NCBI GenBank assembly: GCA_034717975.1
Contig: JAYEMF010000103.1
Coordinates: 1 to 36,509, forward strand
DNA: 36,509 nucleotides
Direction: 5' to 3'
From: Campylobacterota bacterium
GTDB lineage: Bacteria; Campylobacterota; Campylobacteria; Campylobacterales; Sulfurimonadaceae
The first letter of the stretch is position 1. The number at the start of each line of letters is the position of its first letter. The translations under genes and the position numbers were made by a program. The notes below the pieces were generated by a model, which had not been told where the DNA came from, made no database searches, and worked only from the letters and a program-made list of their open reading frames with translations. Positions 1 through 20,509 of this stretch are shown in pieces.

Positions 1-1
1 A

Positions 2-136
2 CTGTTTATTTCGCTTGCGATCGAGAATAGAAGTAAAATCTATATAAACTACAATACCGCAGAACAACATCAAATAAACATGGTAGATGAGATATCGGCC
101 GTGACAGTTCCATTCAATTATAGACCAGCCAAATAA
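2..136 (+). CDS. 3' end of an ORF entering from the left edge (LFISLAIENRSKIYINYNTAEQHQINMVDEISAVTVPFNYRPAK*); loosely resembles a YfiR/DUF4154-type C-terminus
   Basis: Frame is open from base 2 to TAA at 134-136 and converges on the kinase gene. The family resemblance is weak. Confidence 0.35.
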   Translation: MFISLAIENRSKIYINYNTAEQHQINMVDEISAVTVPFNYRPAK

Positions 137-150
137 TCGAGCTCTTTTAA

Positions 151-1617
151 TCAGGATGGAGTGTCTGTCAGGGGCAGTCTAATATCGAATCGAGCCCCCA
201 TATCGGTATTGCTTGCCTTTATTCTTCCAAGCAGCTTGATCTCGACGATTGTTTTTGCAATGAATAGTCCCAGGCCGGTTCCGTGAGCTTGATGCTTTGA
301 CGAGAAGTAGGCATCGTATATTTTATCCATCACTTCATCCGGAATGCCGCCCCCGCTATCCTTGATGCTTAAGTGGATGCTATGGGTATTGGTTGAGACG
401 GCAACGACAATCTCTCGGGCTTTGCCCTCATTTTGATTAATGGCATCAATGGCGTTGTTGATGAGAATAACAATGACCTGTTCCAGTTCAGCCGCCCTCC
501 CTTTCGCCAGGTCTGCGTCATCCTTGGAGAGATGAGTTTTAATGTCTATGTGCTCTTTTTTTAGCGAACCGGCAACAAGCTCTAGTGCATCGAAGACCGC
601 CATCGAAACATTAAACGTCCCCTCGCCATCTTCTTCTTCAGCAGACAAAAATGTTTTAAAGACATTGATGGTGTTTGACATATGATCGATTTGCTGCGAT
701 ATATCCTGATATTGTCTCATTCTGTACTCTTTGTCGAGCTTGCCAATTTCTGTTTTGAACATAAGATCACCGACGGTGGCATTTATGACATGGAGGGGCT
801 GCTTCCACTGATGGGCAATGTTTGCGATCATGGTTCCCATCTCAACAAAACGTGCCTGATGCATCAGCAGGGTGTCTTTGGCCTTGCTGCGCTCCATCTC
901 GTCTTCTTTCTCCCTTATGGCAGTATCTATATTCTTCTGCATTCTCAAGAAGCTAAGGGCGATGTTGCGAACTTCCGGACTAATTGTGTCGAGATGCTGC
1001 TTGATATCAATAGAGTCGCCGGGCTTATAGTTCATCAGGCTTCGGCCAATATTCTTTATTGGCCCCAGGAGTTTGGTAAGTAAAATATTCTCAAATACTA
1101 TAAGAATGAGCAGAAGCAGCAACAGCGCCGATGCGAAGAGAGTGTAGTTTTTTATGAAATGCGTAAGTTCCTCGGTGTTTGTCCGTCCTAATTCCAAGGT
1201 ACCGAGTATTCCGTCGCTCTTAGGGAGTGCAAAGGGAGCGGTGATATATGTTATTACAATGTTGTTGTAAGGATCATCCTTGGAGTAGGCCTCCTTTTTT
1301 TCCTCAAATGAGACTTTACCGTTTGCGGCGGGAGTGTATTTAATATAATCGAGATTGTAAAGATCCAACCACATCTTGAAGTTCGCCGCCATTCTGTCCC
1401 TATCGGACTGAAACAAGTAGTGGGATACAGAAATTTTCGGAGAAATGGTTTTTGCAACAAGGTTGATGTGGTCAGCTTGTGATTCATGGATCATCGCTTT
1501 GGAGCTGGAAAAGATAAACCATCCACCGCCGACCAAGACGACAAAAACGGAGACAAAGAAGAAGAGCATCAGTTTTAAGTGTATTGATGCTGAAAAAAGA
1601 AACTTGAACGGATTCAA
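151..1617 (-). CDS. Membrane sensor histidine kinase (2 TM, periplasmic region, HAMP-like linker, HisKA, HATPase_c)
   Basis: H-box IAHQWKQPL, N-box LINNAIDA, G1 DSGGGI, F-box YFSSK, G2 GTGLGL; two hydrophobic helices. Confidence 0.95.
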   Translation of the reverse strand: MNPFKFLFSASIHLKLMLFFFVSVFVVLVGGGWFIFSSSKAMIHESQADHINLVAKTISPKISVSHYLFQSDRDRMAANFKMWLDLYNLDYIKYTPAANGKVSFEEKKEAYSKDDPYNNIVITYITAPFALPKSDGILGTLELGRTNTEELTHFIKNYTLFASALLLLLLILIVFENILLTKLLGPIKNIGRSLMNYKPGDSIDIKQHLDTISPEVRNIALSFLRMQKNIDTAIREKEDEMERSKAKDTLLMHQARFVEMGTMIANIAHQWKQPLHVINATVGDLMFKTEIGKLDKEYRMRQYQDISQQIDHMSNTINVFKTFLSAEEEDGEGTFNVSMAVFDALELVAGSLKKEHIDIKTHLSKDDADLAKGRAAELEQVIVILINNAIDAINQNEGKAREIVVAVSTNTHSIHLSIKDSGGGIPDEVMDKIYDAYFSSKHQAHGTGLGLFIAKTIVEIKLLGRIKASNTDMGARFDIRLPLTDTPS

Positions 1618-2192
1618 AGGACTTCGCTTTCCTTGTCCAGTTCATCAAGGTACTTCTCTATAGCGCGAAAAGCGATCGCGGATTTGGTTGTGTTTTCTTT
1701 TTGGGCAATGCGTTGCATTCGCTCATCTTGCAATACGGTTGTAACCAGGGAGGTCTGATACCGCATATTCTCTTTCTGTTCGACAATCTTCTCAAGAATC
1801 CCTTGGAGGCGATGCATATTGCATGGCTTGGATATAAAGTCCAATGCGCCAAGCTCTATGGCTTTGGCTAAATGTTTTGGCTGATCAGAGGCGGAAATAA
1901 AAATAATTATTTGATCTTTCTGATTTTTTCTGATTTTTTCTGCTACTTCCAATCCACTCATGCCGGGCATTGTTATATCTATAAAAACCACCTGCGGCTT
2001 TCTTTTTCGATAGATGTTCAAAGCCTCTTCGCCGTTATATGCTGAATACATGGCTTTGAAATAATTATTGAGAGAGTTAGACAGCTTTTCGTTTGCCCTT
2101 ATATCGTCTTCTACGATCATCGCTTCGACATTCGACAGACTGTGTGCCAGTGAAATGAGCTTTTCCATATCGATCTTTTGTTTCATTTCCAA
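1614..2192 (-). CDS. Response regulator (REC) with a short C-terminal ribbon-helix-helix-like domain
   Basis: IVEDD, FIDITMPGMSG (phospho-Asp), ISA, ISKP. C-terminus reads TSLVTTVLQDERMQRIAQKENTTKSAIAFRAIEKYL. Overlaps the kinase start by 4 nt. Confidence 0.9.
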   Translation of the reverse strand: MEMKQKIDMEKLISLAHSLSNVEAMIVEDDIRANEKLSNSLNNYFKAMYSAYNGEEALNIYRKRKPQVVFIDITMPGMSGLEVAEKIRKNQKDQIIIFISASDQPKHLAKAIELGALDFISKPCNMHRLQGILEKIVEQKENMRYQTSLVTTVLQDERMQRIAQKENTTKSAIAFRAIEKYLDELDKESEVL

Positions 2193-2459: not shown

Positions 2460-2554
2460 ATATGCAGGCTATAATGCGACACATTATAAAAAAATTGTTT
2501 TCAAATTGCCTCTGCTTGATAGCGGGAGATGAAAACAGTGATCCAGAGAGTAGA

Positions 2555-3118
2555 ATGAAAGTTAAACCTGAATTTTTTGATGGCATCGTTAGGCATTGGA
2601 CTGACAAACAGAAGGCAGAAGCCGCCAGGATCACTTATCGTCTGGTAAGTTATTACGCTAAGAAAAATCCGGAAATAGATAAAGCAGATTTTGTACAAAC
2701 CGCCATGCTCGCGGCCATTAAGTGCAGAAAGCGATACGGGAACGATATTGTACCCGCAAACCTTAGTGGGTATATTCGCGAAGGAATAAATCGGGACCTT
2801 CTTAGCGATAAGGCCAAGATGCTTAAGCATGATGTGCGATGCGGCTCTGCGGACGAATGCGTAATTGAGTTTATATCCATTGATGGCGCTGCTCAGGATC
2901 ATCTCCTCAATCAAGACAGCCTTTCCATGTTGCTATACGCGGATGAAATTGAAGATTTGCTCACCGCGGAAGAGTATTATGTGTTTAGAAAAGTAATATT
3001 GCAAGGCGATAGCATCGGGGATTGCTATCGTGACCTCAACCCAACATATTCAAGAAGCACAATGGAGCATGACTTTACCAGAGCAAAAGGTAAAGTCGCT
3101 GCATACTACCGTGACTGA
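2555..3118 (+). CDS. Small sigma70-family (group 3/4- or phage-like) RNA polymerase sigma factor
   Basis: Region-2-like LVSYYAKK..DKADFVQTAMLAAIKCRKRY..LSGYIREGI and region-4-like HTH LTAEEYYVFRKVILQGDSIGDCYRDL..SRSTMEHDFTRAKGKV. ATG 2555 is preferred over ORF-track start 2462. Confidence 0.75.
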   Translation: MKVKPEFFDGIVRHWTDKQKAEAARITYRLVSYYAKKNPEIDKADFVQTAMLAAIKCRKRYGNDIVPANLSGYIREGINRDLLSDKAKMLKHDVRCGSADECVIEFISIDGAAQDHLLNQDSLSMLLYADEIEDLLTAEEYYVFRKVILQGDSIGDCYRDLNPTYSRSTMEHDFTRAKGKVAAYYRD

Positions 3119-3839
3119 GCATTTAAGCACACTTTGTGAAATCTATGGCTTGGAGCCTGCAGATGTCCTTAACGAACTCAATGAAGCTGTTTCAGAACAC
3201 GTAATACTTAAACCCTCCGAAGAGGTTGACACCTTTCTAAAAAATAATAAAATATATTTCAGCATAAGAGATACTGCTAAAGTTGACAATGGCATGGGTG
3301 TTGGTGCCGGCTCTAATGATGGACTGCGTATTGTCAATCTTGAAAAAGCACCAGATCTGTACGAGCAGATCATAAAGAGTTTTGAAAAGGGCGTGGCTGA
3401 GGCCAGTGCCCACAATCAATACACGAAGGCGAAGAGGTGGACAAGAAAGATAGTCACCGGAAAGATATCAAGGGCGACTAAGCAGGGCTTCTTTGTCAAC
3501 ACGCCAATAGGGCAGGGCTTTTGCAGCAAGGCGTATCATGTGGCAAAAGAGCAGGTCAACGGTCTTTATAAGAAAGACAAGGAAATGGACTTTGAAGTTA
3601 GATCCGTTTCTTATAGGTCCGGCAAAGTTCAAATCCTTCTGGCAAGGCGCTCTAATGTGTTGGCAAGAAGAGTGGCGGATGATATCTTTTTTCCTGCTCA
3701 TGCAATCAAAGACGTACAGCGAGTGCCAGGCAAGTACACTAAAATCGTACTCGACAAAAAGCCTACTGCAGATCTGATTCAAAAAGCCAGATACCGGTTT
3801 GGGGGAGAGAGAATAATTATTAAGACTGTGGCCGTATAG
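3111..3839 (+). CDS. Truncated NusA-like protein (NTD-like region, S1 domain, degenerate KH1)
   Basis: IVTGKISR (S1 start), VQILLARRS (NusA PQIILSRT), IKDVQRVPGKYTKIVL (NusA IKAIAREPGSRTKIAV), FGGERIII (NusA LNGEKIDII). GTG at 3111 overlaps the sigma stop. Confidence 0.75.
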   Translation: MTEHLSTLCEIYGLEPADVLNELNEAVSEHVILKPSEEVDTFLKNNKIYFSIRDTAKVDNGMGVGAGSNDGLRIVNLEKAPDLYEQIIKSFEKGVAEASAHNQYTKAKRWTRKIVTGKISRATKQGFFVNTPIGQGFCSKAYHVAKEQVNGLYKKDKEMDFEVRSVSYRSGKVQILLARRSNVLARRVADDIFFPAHAIKDVQRVPGKYTKIVLDKKPTADLIQKARYRFGGERIIIKTVAV

Positions 3840-6086: not shown

Positions 6087-9000
6087 ATGAAAAAAGTTCT
6101 GCCATTAATGCTGATATTTTTTGCTGGCAGTGCAATGGCTGCAACGGCACCAGACTCGGACACGATTTATACATGGGGCTATGGGCCATTTATGTTTCAG
6201 CAGCTTGCCGGACTTTCAAATATGATGGGGGATGGTTTTGCCATCAAGGTTGCCGCCGTGATCGGAATATTTTCTTTAGTCTTTAAAAAATTACTCGACC
6301 CAAGAACTTCTCATGTCTTGGAGGTGGGCAGATTCTTTTTTCTCAGCGTATTTATTTATTTTGGTTTTATGGTTGCCGTACCTGGGCACAGTACATATAA
6401 CATCAAGGATGTAACAAACGGGTATGCCGTTCAGGTGACGGGGATTCCTCTTGTGGTGGGCAAGTCCTTCGCTTTGTTCTCATCAATGGAGTATTTGATT
6501 GCCCAAGCAATAGAGCAAAGCTTTAGCACACCAAATTCGACTCAGTACGCCAATGCCGGTTTTGCATTTCCTTTGGCCGCGCATGAAGCAATGGCAAACG
6601 TAAGACCGGTAGCTCCATATATTCAGCAGAGTATGGATGAGTTCGTTGGGAACTGCTTGCTTTATGCTATTGACGAAGGAGCAATCGATCCCGTCGTTCT
6701 TTATAACAGCGCAGCGGTATATGATGATATGAATGTGAATGACCCCTCCAGGGTGACAATAGTTTATTCTGCGGCGAATCTGGTCGGAGACATAATGGGA
6801 TGTGATGTGGCGCAATCAGCCATAAAAACTATGTTGATTAATGAAGTCGGAAATATGGAGTCAGTAGCAGCAGCTTCAATGGGAGCTATAAATAAATACT
6901 CCGCAGTCGGCAATGTTGTGAGCAACAAGGCATCTGATGTCGCAATGGCGCTTTTTAACATGTCAAAAACATCGCAAGAGTACATTATGCAGTCGGCTGC
7001 CATTAATGCAATGCAGAGCTCTTTTGTGAATGTAGCTAAAGTTGCGGGCATTGACACTTACTCATTAGCATACGGAACAGCAACAGCAGAGAGGCAAGCG
7101 CAGACCAACTTCCTGATCAGTGGAAAACTGGCACAAAAGTACCTTCCTGTACTTAAGGGCGTATTAACGCTTACGATTGTCGGAATCAGTTGGCTGTTAG
7201 CTCTTTTTGCGCTGGCCTACTTTGATATGAAATACCTTTGGATGGTTTTCTCTTTACAGATATGGCTAATGCTCTGGACGCCTATCGCGGCAATTTACAA
7301 TAATATTCAGCTGCTCATGGTTCAGGCGATCCTTGAGCCATATTCAAGCGTCGGCAGTTGGTACACCCTAAACAATAAGAGTGTAGTCGATAATGAAGTT
7401 CTTTCCGCACTGTCTTGGATGGGTTATATCGGATGGCTTATTCCTCTTTTTGCATACGCTATCTCTAAAGGATCGGACCACGCATTTACTATGATGGCAA
7501 ACAGCTTATCCAGTGCAATGGGTGGCGCGACCGGTCAAGCCGCTGGAGAAGTGGCGAGAGGTAATATACAGCTTGGCGAAGTAAGGGCAGGACACAGGGA
7601 GGTGGTTGCAAACGGCTCATCATATTCAGAGGGTGCGTATGGCGCAAGATCCACTGAAGCCTTTAGGCAAAATGGCATGATTGGTACAACAGAACACACT
7701 CAATGGAAAGACCAGTCTGCGCGAACCGATAATTTGGGCGGCAAAAGTGTAATAAGCGATACTGCCGGAAACGCAACAAGCACCAATGCTGTTGACTCAA
7801 GAGTTCAGGGGGGTATCAATACGCAGCAGGCTCAAACAGTCACGACCGCACAATCCAAAATAGACACAATCTCTGACAAACAGGGAGAGACTGCTTCTGC
7901 CATGATGAAGCAGGCATATACGGCGACGAATGGCAACACCCATACGGAAGAGGGTAGCGAAGGATATACGAAAACCCAGCGTTTGGATGAGGTTACAAGA
8001 GGGGCATTCACAAAAGCCTACAATACTGACGACACTTTTCGAGAGAGCGTTACAAAATCTCTTGAAGCGAAGCTGGGAGCAGCGGGAGCTATGGATTTTG
8101 TCAAGGGCTTAAGCAAGGGGAGAGGTTCGGTCCGACCAAATGCAAGCGGGGGTTGGTCTGCCAAAGACGAGGAGGGCACAACGCATTCGTTCAGTGATAA
8201 GGAAACTGACACATTTGAGCGTTCCCTGGGAGAATCGGTAAGCGCTCAGATTTCATCCGGGCAAATGCAAAAGACAGCAACCAGCACAAGCAAGAACTCA
8301 TCCGACAGCAAAGAGTGGAACAAGGGCTTCTCTCAAATGACAGAGTATGGTGAACAGCTAAAAGAGGAGAATAAAAAAGTAAATCAGGCGCAAAAAGCAA
8401 TAACTGCCGCCGACAATATGGGAGCCGATACCTCAGCCGCTCTTTTTAATCATGTAAAAGCCAATTATAACGATAAAGTTGATGGCGAGGGCAACAAGGT
8501 GGAAGGAAGGGATCTTTCAAACAGAGAGGCGCTGGATAAATTTTTAACATACGGGAACCAAACACTAGGAGAAGAGGAGAGGACTCGACTAGATACTGTG
8601 ATGGGCGAATTTCTCAGTGGGCAGGGGGCCACTCAGGACGCAAGAACGGGCAACAAAAACAAGCTTGAGCCGAAGGAGGCCGCGAATATCAGCATGGATG
8701 GCGTGCCACAACCCGGACATATCGAAAAGAAATCTGCTAATGCAAAAGAGGCTCCGCTGGGCATTGAGGAGAATCTCGGAGGAGTCTTGAGTACAATACA
8801 CGATAGTAAGCAGCCGAGCACACACGTCGATCCCTTGAAGGCGAAACAAGAAAATCTTGAAACCTACATGAAGAATAAAAATAGTGCGGAAGCTCCGACC
8901 GGCAGTGTCGAGCAAGAGTTCAAGGACAGCTATCAGGATGTTCAGTTTCCAATGGCGGGACTGTATGCCGGAACAGCTATGGGAGTATTGGGAAGCCTGT

Positions 9001-18405: not shown

Positions 18406-19950
18406 TTGACAGCAAAAAGTGATTTTTTTTCAGGAATGAAGGCGACATCAGCCACTGGTAGGACGATCAGTATAGAGGAGATGACCAGCGGGGAAAGTTT
18501 GCTGCTAGGCAAGCATTATGCTAATCCATCAAAAGAGCCTGTTTCTTACAACCCCGATTTGATGCCAAATAGCCATGTACTTCTTTTGGGTAAATCCCAG
18601 ACAGGCAAAACCACTACGCTAAAAAAATTTATCGAGTATATGGGGAAGCCTAGAGATATCCCCGGCTACAGTGAGCCAGTACAGAAAACCGGATTTGTCC
18701 TTGATTTTAGTGGGGACCTGGGTGTTCCAGGAGAAAACTCGATTCTTATAAAAGGCCGGAAGTCACAATATGGCCTCAATCTATTTGAATTGTTTTCAAA
18801 AGATTACAATTCAGGCGGAGTGAACGTCCAAAGGGCGAATATCATACGGATGATTGAGCGATACTTTCTTGGCGGGGGCATGGGATCTGTTCAGAGTTCC
18901 GTGATGGAACAATTGATATCCGACACATATGCACTCAAAGGCATCTTTGATGATAAGGAAGAGACTTGGGATAATGAGTTGCCTGTTGCTGAGGATATGC
19001 TTGAGCTTCTTATATTGATAGTCGATTCGGCTGAAACGGCCTTGTCGGTCAATATGCTAAAAAAGATCAAAGCTGATGGAAAAAGGATAAGAAAACTGGA
19101 TGGACACATAGATGTTGCAAAAGATAAAATAGATCTGCTTGAGAAAAAAGGGGAAGGGGACAAGGTAGCTCAGGGGAAAATTGGGAAAATTGCCGACCAG
19201 CTCAGTAAGCTTGAAGATGATCGCAACAGTTTGTATAACGGGCTAAAAACTCTAATGAGCGACTTCCTAGACCACAAAATTTATGGCGAAGAAGCCGGGG
19301 GAGAAATTATTATTGAGGACGATAAGCCATTGAATGTGGATATCGGGTTTTACAGTGAGCGCAATGCCTTGAATGCTCTCAAGTCTTTGAGGCCACATTT
19401 GCAAAAGATCGTTGAATCTGGTGCTTTTAGTGGACAGCTGCCCCCAATCAAACGAGGGGTTAACCGGATCGATCTCTCATTGTTGTCATTGCCACTTCAA
19501 AAACTCTTCACAGATCTGTTTGCACAAAAGGCTTTTACCAGCGTGCGCAGCAGAGGTGTGTATCGCGAGTGGCCTAACAGGGTTGATTCATTCCGTATTG
19601 ATGTGTTTTTCGTGATAGATGAAGCCAAGCTCATAATTCCTGAAGGAAGGGCTGCCAAAGAGAGCAAAGAAGAGCCAATAAATCGGATCGTTGCGGAGTC
19701 GTTAAAGTTCGGAATGTGCATCCTGATGGCCTCTCAGAAAATAAGCCATTTTTCGTCTGAAATGCTTACAAATGCGAGTTTCAAGCTGATTCTTCAGCTT
19801 GGTCCAAACGACATGCAGGCGGCAAAAACGATGCTTGGATTAAAAGAGGGCGACATGAGAGTATTGCAACATTTTGGTGTTGGACTTGTCTTAGATGGCA
19901 CAAAGAAACCAGTACCGACCGTCTTTCCTTGGGCAAACATTCCAAATTAG
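18406..19950 (+). CDS. FtsK/HerA-superfamily (HerA/VirB4-like) soluble ATPase with a coiled-coil insertion
   Basis: NSHVLLLGKSQTGKT (Walker A), FVLDFSGD, FFVIDEA (Walker B), KFG..ILMASQ; no TM segment. Confidence 0.85.
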   Translation: MTAKSDFFSGMKATSATGRTISIEEMTSGESLLLGKHYANPSKEPVSYNPDLMPNSHVLLLGKSQTGKTTTLKKFIEYMGKPRDIPGYSEPVQKTGFVLDFSGDLGVPGENSILIKGRKSQYGLNLFELFSKDYNSGGVNVQRANIIRMIERYFLGGGMGSVQSSVMEQLISDTYALKGIFDDKEETWDNELPVAEDMLELLILIVDSAETALSVNMLKKIKADGKRIRKLDGHIDVAKDKIDLLEKKGEGDKVAQGKIGKIADQLSKLEDDRNSLYNGLKTLMSDFLDHKIYGEEAGGEIIIEDDKPLNVDIGFYSERNALNALKSLRPHLQKIVESGAFSGQLPPIKRGVNRIDLSLLSLPLQKLFTDLFAQKAFTSVRSRGVYREWPNRVDSFRIDVFFVIDEAKLIIPEGRAAKESKEEPINRIVAESLKFGMCILMASQKISHFSSEMLTNASFKLILQLGPNDMQAAKTMLGLKEGDMRVLQHFGVGLVLDGTKKPVPTVFPWANIPN

Positions 19951-20400: not shown

Positions 20401-20416
20401 AAGCAGTCCAATCTTC

Positions 20417-20485
20417 AAGGGCGGGATTCTTTGCCCCCGCCGCCCTTTCTCATCTCAGCGCTTTTTGGAGCTTTGAGATGAGAAA
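20417..20485 (+). terminator. Two adjoining stem-loops between traA and traL (terminator, attenuator or stabiliser)
   Basis: AAGGGCGG 20417-20424 pairs with CCGCCCTT 20440-20447. TTTCTCATCTCA 20446-20457 pairs with TGAGATGAGAAA 20474-20485 (12 bp perfect). Confidence 0.65.
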
Positions 20486-20509
20486 TCAATCAGAAAAGGA
20501 AACAGGACC

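Follow-up and report, generated by a model that had tools for sequence, protein, structure and literature searches.

What role does a diverged relative of the elongation factor NusA play on a conjugative plasmid, where its gene overlaps a gene for a sigma-factor-like protein? The question is raised by positions 2555–3839 of contig C103, which belongs to a 2.52-Mb genome assembled in 149 contigs. The whole contig, 36.5 kb in length, was analysed and is referred to as the window. One F-type conjugative plasmid spanning the window and a second contig, C93 (12 kb), in a host belonging to the Campylobacterota, was the best explanation of the gene content. According to the original prediction, the two overlapping open reading frames (ORFs) at this locus encode an element-borne sigma factor and a truncated NusA paralogue, which would serve as a private initiation and elongation module for conjugation; this interpretation, taken as a whole, was partly supported. 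By sequence and by predicted fold, the 242-amino-acid (aa) downstream protein is a truncated NusA paralogue, which is composed of an N-terminal domain, an S1 domain, and a KH1 domain and stops where KH2 would begin. The NusA-like family was confined, so far, to conjugative elements.

The gene pair

The overlap between the 187-aa and 242-aa ORFs was confirmed at 2555–3118 and 3111–3839, with 8 nucleotides (nt) in common. The GTG start codon of the NusA-like gene at 3111 is located within the last codons of the upstream gene, whose stop codon occupies 3116–3118, and the NusA-like stop codon is at 3837–3839. Both frames were intact. The start of the NusA-like protein was placed at or before 3114, because its homologues conserve the first helix; a gene call of 229 aa from TTG 3150 was rejected as too short, the N-terminal helix being kept in the homologues. 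The length of 187 aa for the sigma-like ORF was recorded by one public source.

Structure of the NusA-like protein

The NusA profile TIGR01953 matched residues 39–216 of the protein on profile positions 61–236 of 340, with an E value of 6e-8. Among the Foldseek matches listed, the first 16 rows were all NusA structures, and the best was 4mtn (E 5.2e-14). When compared by hhalign with 12 NusA proteins of the Campylobacterota, including that of the host, the family gave a probability of 98.2% and an E value of 5.6e-14, with residues 2–220 aligned on residues 5–256 of the host NusA. The family profile also matched the solved NusA structures 1k0r (E 1.6e-7; residues 14–217 on 36–244) and 1hh2 (E 5.4e-6). 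The AlphaFold model, predicted from the family alignment with a predicted local distance difference test score (pLDDT) of 87.9 and a predicted template modelling (TM) score of 0.72, was poor only at the loop of residues 58–70 and superposed on NusA residues 5–278. The ESM Atlas model gave TM scores of 0.74–0.78 against NusA clusters. The TIGR01953, Foldseek, and hhalign results bear out the original prediction that the protein follows NusA through S1 and KH1 and ends before KH2.

The N-terminal domain of NusA has an RNA polymerase binding role. In the window protein the fold of this domain was present as judged by the predicted model and the hhalign alignment, and this part was acidic, with an isoelectric point (pI) of 4.9. 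The S1 domain was recognized by Pfam, by the family profile, and by the fold of the model. The KH1 fold was present without its GXXG loop, through which KH domains bind nucleic acids; a gap of 11 columns fell at the loop of the host NusA in a global profile alignment. KH2 was absent, and the protein ended at the position of NusA residue 278. The overall pI was 9.5, in contrast to 4.6 for the host NusA. The NGN and KOW domains were absent from the Pfam and NCBIfam scans of the protein, and its fold was that of NusA.

The protein is most fittingly described as a NusA variant that is new and element-borne, as it falls outside NusA membership by score, by the absence of KH2, and by the absence of GXXG. 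Its TIGR01953 score of 32.1 bits was below the equivalog cut-off of 253.4 bits, which was exceeded by the genuine nusA of the host, located on contig C75 (314.8 bits). The predicted presence of a NusA paralogue on an F-type conjugative element was upheld, with the true nusA on C75 and a set of tra genes that starts at 6087 and continues until the window ends.

Sigma likeness of the upstream protein

In the 187-aa protein, the region-2-like segment comprises residues 24–111, which matched TIGR02937 on profile positions 7–86 (E 8.7e-4), and residues 123–187 form a candidate region-4, helix-turn-helix-like fold. A Pfam Sigma70_r2 match was found at E 0.034. The ESM-Atlas feature score to sigma-factor clusters was 0.97, and shuffled proteins reached at least 0.95 in about 1 case in 100. 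The homologues, all from Aliarcobacter or Arcobacter, carry hypothetical-protein annotations, and a tblastn search of the protein against plasmids gave no match. A Foldseek search with the poor single-sequence model gave no match at E ≤ 1e-3. Judged from the sequence, the likeness to sigma factors is real but weak, below every curated threshold, and descent of the protein from the sigma-70 family is considered probable. The sigma-70 likeness in the original prediction is retained as far as the weak TIGR02937, Pfam, and Atlas matches reach, and it lacks a score above any cut-off as well as a Foldseek match.

Motif copies upstream of the plasmid operons

A 24-nt motif, CGCAAAACGNNAAAAACGSCTTAT, was first seen by reading the intergenic regions. 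Three copies were found in the window against an expectation of 0, and the genome-wide count was five (reversed control, 0), all on C103 or C93. All five copies were on the coding strand, directly upstream of plasmid operons (Table 1); the parM-like operon on C93 runs on to the gene in the relaxase position. The motif combines a −10-like stretch, TATTAG or TATAAA, with a conserved block extending over the −35 position and spacer. Because a ribosome-binding site has to be accommodated within the 28–64 nt before the gene starts, the block itself would have to span −35 to −10. These five copies at the heads of plasmid operons fit a private initiation factor. The element-specific promoters of the original prediction are supported in that a plasmid-only motif heads the three blocks that it had named (from 6087, 10694, and 20119) and two operons on C93; their recognition by the sigma-like protein is what we infer.

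The region that separates the response-regulator and sigma-like genes contained the 9-nt core of the motif, CGCAAAACG, followed by a TATAAA-type stretch. This core alone was nonspecific, with 29 genome-wide matches, some of them in housekeeping regions of contig C111. The core stands among three 15-nt exact palindromes, TAATG-N5-CATTA, which are candidate operators and the only occurrences of this sequence in the genome. The arrangement is consistent with a dedicated initiation factor whose gene is auto-activated and repressed through operators. The promoter motif was absent from all 10 related loci described below.

Relatives and gene neighbourhoods of the NusA-like family

A homologue search of 1.84 billion representatives gave 12 members of the NusA-like family at E ≤ 1e-3. 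Most of these representatives were 221–255 aa long, and two were shorter (187 and 208 aa). Among 400 further genomes of the phylum searched with the family profile, 11 contained full-length members, in open frames of 224–256 aa; every other match with an E value of 1e-5 or below was to a standard nusA or rpsA gene. The family may extend beyond the Campylobacterota, as Thermodesulfobacteriota were indicated by the ESM Atlas. Ten loci were examined, consisting of nine genome stretches and the Campylobacter upsaliensis plasmid NZ_OU701460.1, whose protein WP_004276236.1 is a family member annotated as hypothetical; two genomes with matches on contigs shorter than 2.4 kb were left out. The neighbourhood counts were made without the closest homologues, P0003 to P0006, of which P0003, P0005, and P0006 are encoded on contigs of 63, 27, and 49 kb. 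Searches for related loci with alignment A4 or protein P0006 gave no relative in genome, metagenome (two scans), or viral contigs.

Seven of the ten loci (L004 and L035–L040) were of the DNA transfer and replication (Dtr) type. Here, a divergent gene for an XRE-type repressor is followed by the NusA-like gene, dn270, HD_5 (in four of these loci), and the genes of a type IV coupling protein (T4CP) and of an HD-domain protein that takes the relaxase position, and the NusA-like gene heads this operon. The dn270 product is a conserved protein of about 270 aa, hydrophobic and likely a membrane protein as judged by eye. In L041, a 6.5-kb contig, the NusA-like gene was likewise followed by dn270. F-type tra genes were located within 10 kb in six of the ten loci. 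The corresponding dn270–HD_5–T4CP–HD block on C93 matched that of the relatives with E values from 1.5e-74 to 1.7e-140; it has no NusA-like gene, which in the window plasmid adjoins the sigma-like gene instead.

Two further features of the Dtr-type loci were observed. A conserved 69-aa gene without a family directly precedes the NusA-like gene in four loci (L035, 9769–9978; L036, 10598–10822; L037, 9780–9989; L038, 10606–10815) and overlaps it in three of them. It was considered as a counterpart of the sigma-like gene and rejected, as the searches related it neither to the sigma-like protein nor to sigma factors. The relaxase-position proteins of L035 (13329–15716) and L036 (4714–7116), 795–800 aa in length, have the HD domain fused to GGDEF (PF00990; E 2e-38 and 6e-34).

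In the two remaining loci, L042 of genome G398 and L043 of genome G033, the gene order was UvrD-type helicase, a 155 to 160-aa gene, NusA-like gene, and Rep3 initiator. The sigma-like ORF was the best match among the window ORFs to a hidden Markov model of the 155 to 160-aa gene (E 0.0013), and the two share an N-terminal signature. The overlap of this gene with the NusA-like gene was 20 nt in both G033 and G398. In a profile search of the 400 genomes, the sigma-like family was found only in these two, in addition to two marginal matches. In a neighbour-joining tree, which has no support values, the window protein grouped with the four metagenomic proteins P0003 to P0006 and the G033 and G398 proteins were placed on another branch, so that the overlapping pair is found in three genomes on two branches of the family. 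In G033 (L043 and L086/L087; C1, about 1148860–1155270), the Rep3 gene is followed by about seven iteron-like repeats. The element, which is integrated, also contains a repeated stretch of about 105 nt in front of two transfer operons, one led by DsbC and the other by TraK.

Proposed mechanism and alternative roles

We tentatively favour the reading that the two genes form a co-translated regulatory cassette of the F-type plasmid, made up of a private initiation factor and an RNA polymerase-binding NusA paralogue. The 187-aa protein would most likely direct the host RNA polymerase to the plasmid-only motif promoters, which would serve the operons beginning with traG_N, traW, traA, and the parM-like gene and one further operon. 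A degenerate motif copy precedes the sigma-like gene itself, which the three palindromic operators would keep off. The NusA-like protein would use its N-terminal domain to bind RNA polymerase, where it would replace the host NusA. With neither KH2 nor the GXXG loop, and with its charge reversed, it may modify the pausing or termination that depends on NusA in plasmid transcripts. This cassette is favoured because the fold of the N-terminal domain is retained in 10 of the 12 representatives and in all ten loci, because the NusA-like gene is the first in its operon in four relatives, where it follows an ordinary AT-rich promoter region, and because, on two family branches, its translation is coupled to that of a sigma-like gene. 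The first position in an operon is typical of operon-specific NusG paralogues.

Several results weigh against the cassette. The sigma-like protein scored 19 bits with TIGR02937, below the curated cut-off of 42.9, and 14.4 bits with Sigma70_r2, below the cut-off of 24. Its single-sequence model was poor, with a pLDDT of 55.4. The sigma-like profiles A3 and A6 gave nothing at E ≤ 10 against the PDB, hhalign comparisons of A3 with FliA (E 0.38) and RpoD (E 0.18) of the host lineage were not significant, and all seven homologues in alignment A6 were without a sigma-family match. The reader of the motif could be the response regulator or another protein. A fixed pairing of sigma and NusA beside tra, as originally proposed, was not found: eight of the ten related loci have no sigma-like neighbour and the pair recurs only in G033 and G398, which argues that the NusA-like family works without a sigma-like partner. 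The proposed read-through of the tra blocks was weakened as well, since terminator-like sites were not enriched in them (22 against 17.6 ± 4.0 expected); another count of such sites likewise showed no excess (5 against 4.1 ± 2.1). In the NusA-like family, mean pairwise identity was 16.7% in the N-terminal domain and 28% in S1 and KH1, the corresponding values in true NusA being 48% and 56–67%. Moreover, each of the six residues invariant in the family is located in S1 or KH, and this half is basic, unlike that of NusA. The family adjoins genes of DNA processing and replication (T4CP, HD protein, UvrD, and Rep3) and does not lead the long operons for pilus assembly.

The last of these results bear on an alternative that we regard as possible but rather doubtful, in which neither protein acts on RNA polymerase. 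The NusA-like protein would bind single-stranded nucleic acid through its basic S1/KH-like half and thus assist conjugative DNA processing, or replication, at the relaxosome or the origin or as a T-strand chaperone. The sigma-like protein would be its partner for double-stranded DNA recognition, comparable to the MobI-type auxiliary factors of MOBH relaxases. Such a role is in keeping with the location of the gene directly before the dn270–(HD_5)–T4CP–HD block in seven of the ten loci and, in two others, with a UvrD-type helicase on one side and a Rep3 initiator and its iterons on the other. It is also in keeping with the conservation of the S1 and KH parts, which contain every invariant residue and are basic (pI 10.3 each) compared with the acidic KH1 of the host NusA (pI 4.6), and with the family profile, which scored ribosomal protein S1 (E 6e-8) as high as NusA (E 1.6e-7). 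However, the complete fold of the NusA N-terminal domain is kept, though it has no known DNA-binding role, and the GXXG loop has been deleted. In the window plasmid, the gene lies beside the sigma-like gene and outside the Dtr operon, which is on C93 under its own motif promoter. The position at the head of an operon would equally fit a transcription factor acting in cis.

It is unlikely that the 187-aa protein is an ordinary helix-turn-helix activator or repressor, with the motif read by the host sigma-70 and another regulator and the NusA-like protein acting as an RNA-binding post-transcriptional regulator. The sub-threshold scores of all the sigma evidence would be accommodated in this way, a housekeeping sigma could use the −10-like TATTAG or TATAAA stretch, and a two-component system is divergently adjacent to the pair. 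Against this, the region-2-type match falls in the N-terminal half, outside the helix-turn-helix, and shuffled proteins rarely reach the level of the Atlas score (about 1 in 100). A conserved block over the −35 position and spacer, 28–64 nt from the starts, would be more typical of promoters for alternative sigma factors, and the kinase and regulator may be cargo, given that the flank joins the contig of a TonB-dependent receptor. A decaying or chance remnant without function is very improbable. Close homologues were very few, as a word-indexed search returned only a 99%-identical copy of the sigma-like protein and only the NusA-like protein itself, but the intact frames, the 12 family representatives with their invariant residues and confident fold, and the conservation of the overlapping pair in three genomes all argue otherwise. 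The same DNA was also present in four DNA metagenome runs, all of one study and with no RNA run among them.

Comparison with known systems

Bacterial NusA shares with the window protein the domain order and the fold of the N-terminal domain, S1, and KH1. It differs in having KH2, GXXG, and, in some cases, the C-terminal AR1/AR2 repeats, all of which the window protein lacks. The genuine nusA is on C75, whereas the window paralogue is plasmid-borne and of opposite charge. The window protein belongs to the unannotated family of WP_004276236.1, whose members were matched by the A1 profile at E 1e-11 to 1e-41. These proteins are about 225–255 aa long, and all are encoded on F-type/MOBH-like elements. 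Their genes are found at T4CP/relaxase operons, whereas the window gene is detached from the Dtr operon and translationally coupled to the sigma-like gene.

Specialized NusG paralogues of mobile elements or long operons include RfaH, ActX, TraB of IncI1, UpxY, and LoaP. They are likewise diverged forms of a universal elongation factor, encoded on an element or first in the operon that they serve. They belong to the NGN-KOW family, whereas the window protein derives from NusA, and the likeness would be a functional analogy only. A recruitment site such as ops was not found for the window protein. MobI-type auxiliary factors serve MOBH relaxases, and they may be likened to the NusA-like family by position, as small genes beside the T4CP and relaxase of MOBH-like elements; MobI is not known to have a NusA fold.

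The sigma-like protein resembles the alternative and extracytoplasmic function (ECF) sigma-70 factors in its length of about 190 aa, its region-2-like and region-4-like halves, its location on an element, and a possible autoregulated promoter. It differs from them in that it lies below all curated thresholds. The window motif is unlike the AAC/CGT spacing of ECF promoters, and there is no anti-sigma partner here, the NusA paralogue occupying the usual position of one. Plasmid-encoded sigma factors are known; SigN of pBS32 is one to which the same likeness applies (PMC6751061). In agreement with the original prediction, which knew of no NusA paralogue described in such a role, literature searches gave, within the text that they returned, no paper on a NusA paralogue and none joining a NusA-like protein, a plasmid, and conjugation. 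The papers that combine NusA, conjugative, and paralog concern NusG paralogues in the text accessible (PMC7593976, PMC7819879, and PMC12691694).

Surrounding genes on the plasmid contigs

Downstream of the gene pair, the window encodes an F-type type IV secretion set comprising TraG_N, TraF, TraW, TraU, TrbC, TraA, TraL, TraE, TraK, TraB, TraV, TraC, TrbI, TraH, and TraN. The same stretch also encodes a DsbC-like protein, S26 and S49 peptidases, and topoisomerase III. With the T4CP and the HD-domain relaxase-position protein of C93, the gene set of a conjugative element with F-type mating pair formation (MPF_F) was present. C93 begins with ParB, ParA, and a 688-aa protein matching no known family. 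The first motif copy is followed by the ParM-like gene, a 180-aa gene, the 275-aa dn270 homologue, HD_5, a TraG-D_C-type T4CP, and the HD-domain protein, which occupies the relaxase position, and the second motif copy comes next.

Two other features were noticed in the window. A 514-aa FtsK/HerA-like ATPase is encoded at 18406–19950 after topoisomerase III, in addition to the TraG-D_C-type coupling protein of C93. A GC-rich inverted repeat, seen by eye, is located at 20401–20509 between the pilin gene traA and traL and was unflagged by the terminator scan.

The histidine kinase and response regulator genes (151..2192) are divergent from the cassette, with which they are associated by adjacency alone. 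The left end of the window (1–150) overlaps by 127 nt with contig C53, on which a TonB-dependent receptor and a weak YfiR-like match were found. Since the left flank runs into this contig, the kinase and response regulator may have no part in regulating the cassette and be cargo instead. A guess, made by eye, that the C-terminal 58 aa of the response regulator form a ribbon-helix-helix was dropped, as the family scan matched nothing.

Table 1. Positions of the gene pair, its domains, the motif-related sites, and other features (C103 is the window)
Feature	Contig	Position	Strand	Remarks
Sigma-70-family-like ORF, 187 aa	C103	2555..3118	+	Internal ATG 2555 of listed ORF 2462..3118
Truncated NusA paralogue, 242 aa	C103	3111..3839	+	GTG 3111 inside listed ORF 3030..3839
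NusA N-terminal-domain-like part, residues 1–108	C103	3111..3434	+	Model aligned from residue 1 to NusA residue 5
S1 domain, residues 112–180	C103	3444..3650	+	Pfam S1 E 0.0099; pI 10.3
KH1-like domain without GXXG loop, residues 181–240	C103	3651..3830	+	pI 10.3
24-nt motif copy	C103	6023..6046	+	Ends 40 nt before traG_N start (6087)
24-nt motif copy	C103	10636..10659	+	Ends 34 nt before traW start (10694)
24-nt motif copy	C103	20045..20068	+	Ends 50 nt before pilin traA start (20119)
24-nt motif copy	C93	5404–5427	coding strand	28 nt before parM-like gene
24-nt motif copy	C93	11397–11420	coding strand	64 nt before small ORF
9-nt core of the motif	C103	2432..2440	+	115 nt upstream of sigma-like start, then TATAAA-type stretch
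15-nt exact palindromes TAATG-N5-CATTA	C103	2307–2321, 2364–2378, 2472–2486		Candidate operators
F-type type IV secretion genes	C103	6087..36509	+	Pfam and NCBIfam scans
Histidine kinase	C103	151–1617	−	Pfam HATPase_c
Response regulator	C103	1614–2192	−	Pfam Response_reg

Implications for conjugative elements of the Campylobacterota

Specialized NusG paralogues are numerous and are the textbook means by which plasmids and long operons escape host termination. If the cassette reading is true, the window protein would be the first specialized NusA paralogue described, and the conjugation-linked NusA family would provide a second route by which mobile elements reprogramme the host RNA polymerase. 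It is conceivable, though on the doubtful side, that NusA was domesticated by conjugative elements of the Campylobacterota, much as NusG was by other plasmids, into a minimal factor composed of the N-terminal domain, S1, and KH1, and that its combination here with a private sigma factor makes transfer transcription nearly orthogonal. If the role in DNA processing is true instead, the NusA scaffold would have been reused for the handling of single-stranded DNA. The five identical putative promoters, the sigma-like gene, and the operator cluster would constitute a compact, testable transfer circuit of an environmental plasmid.

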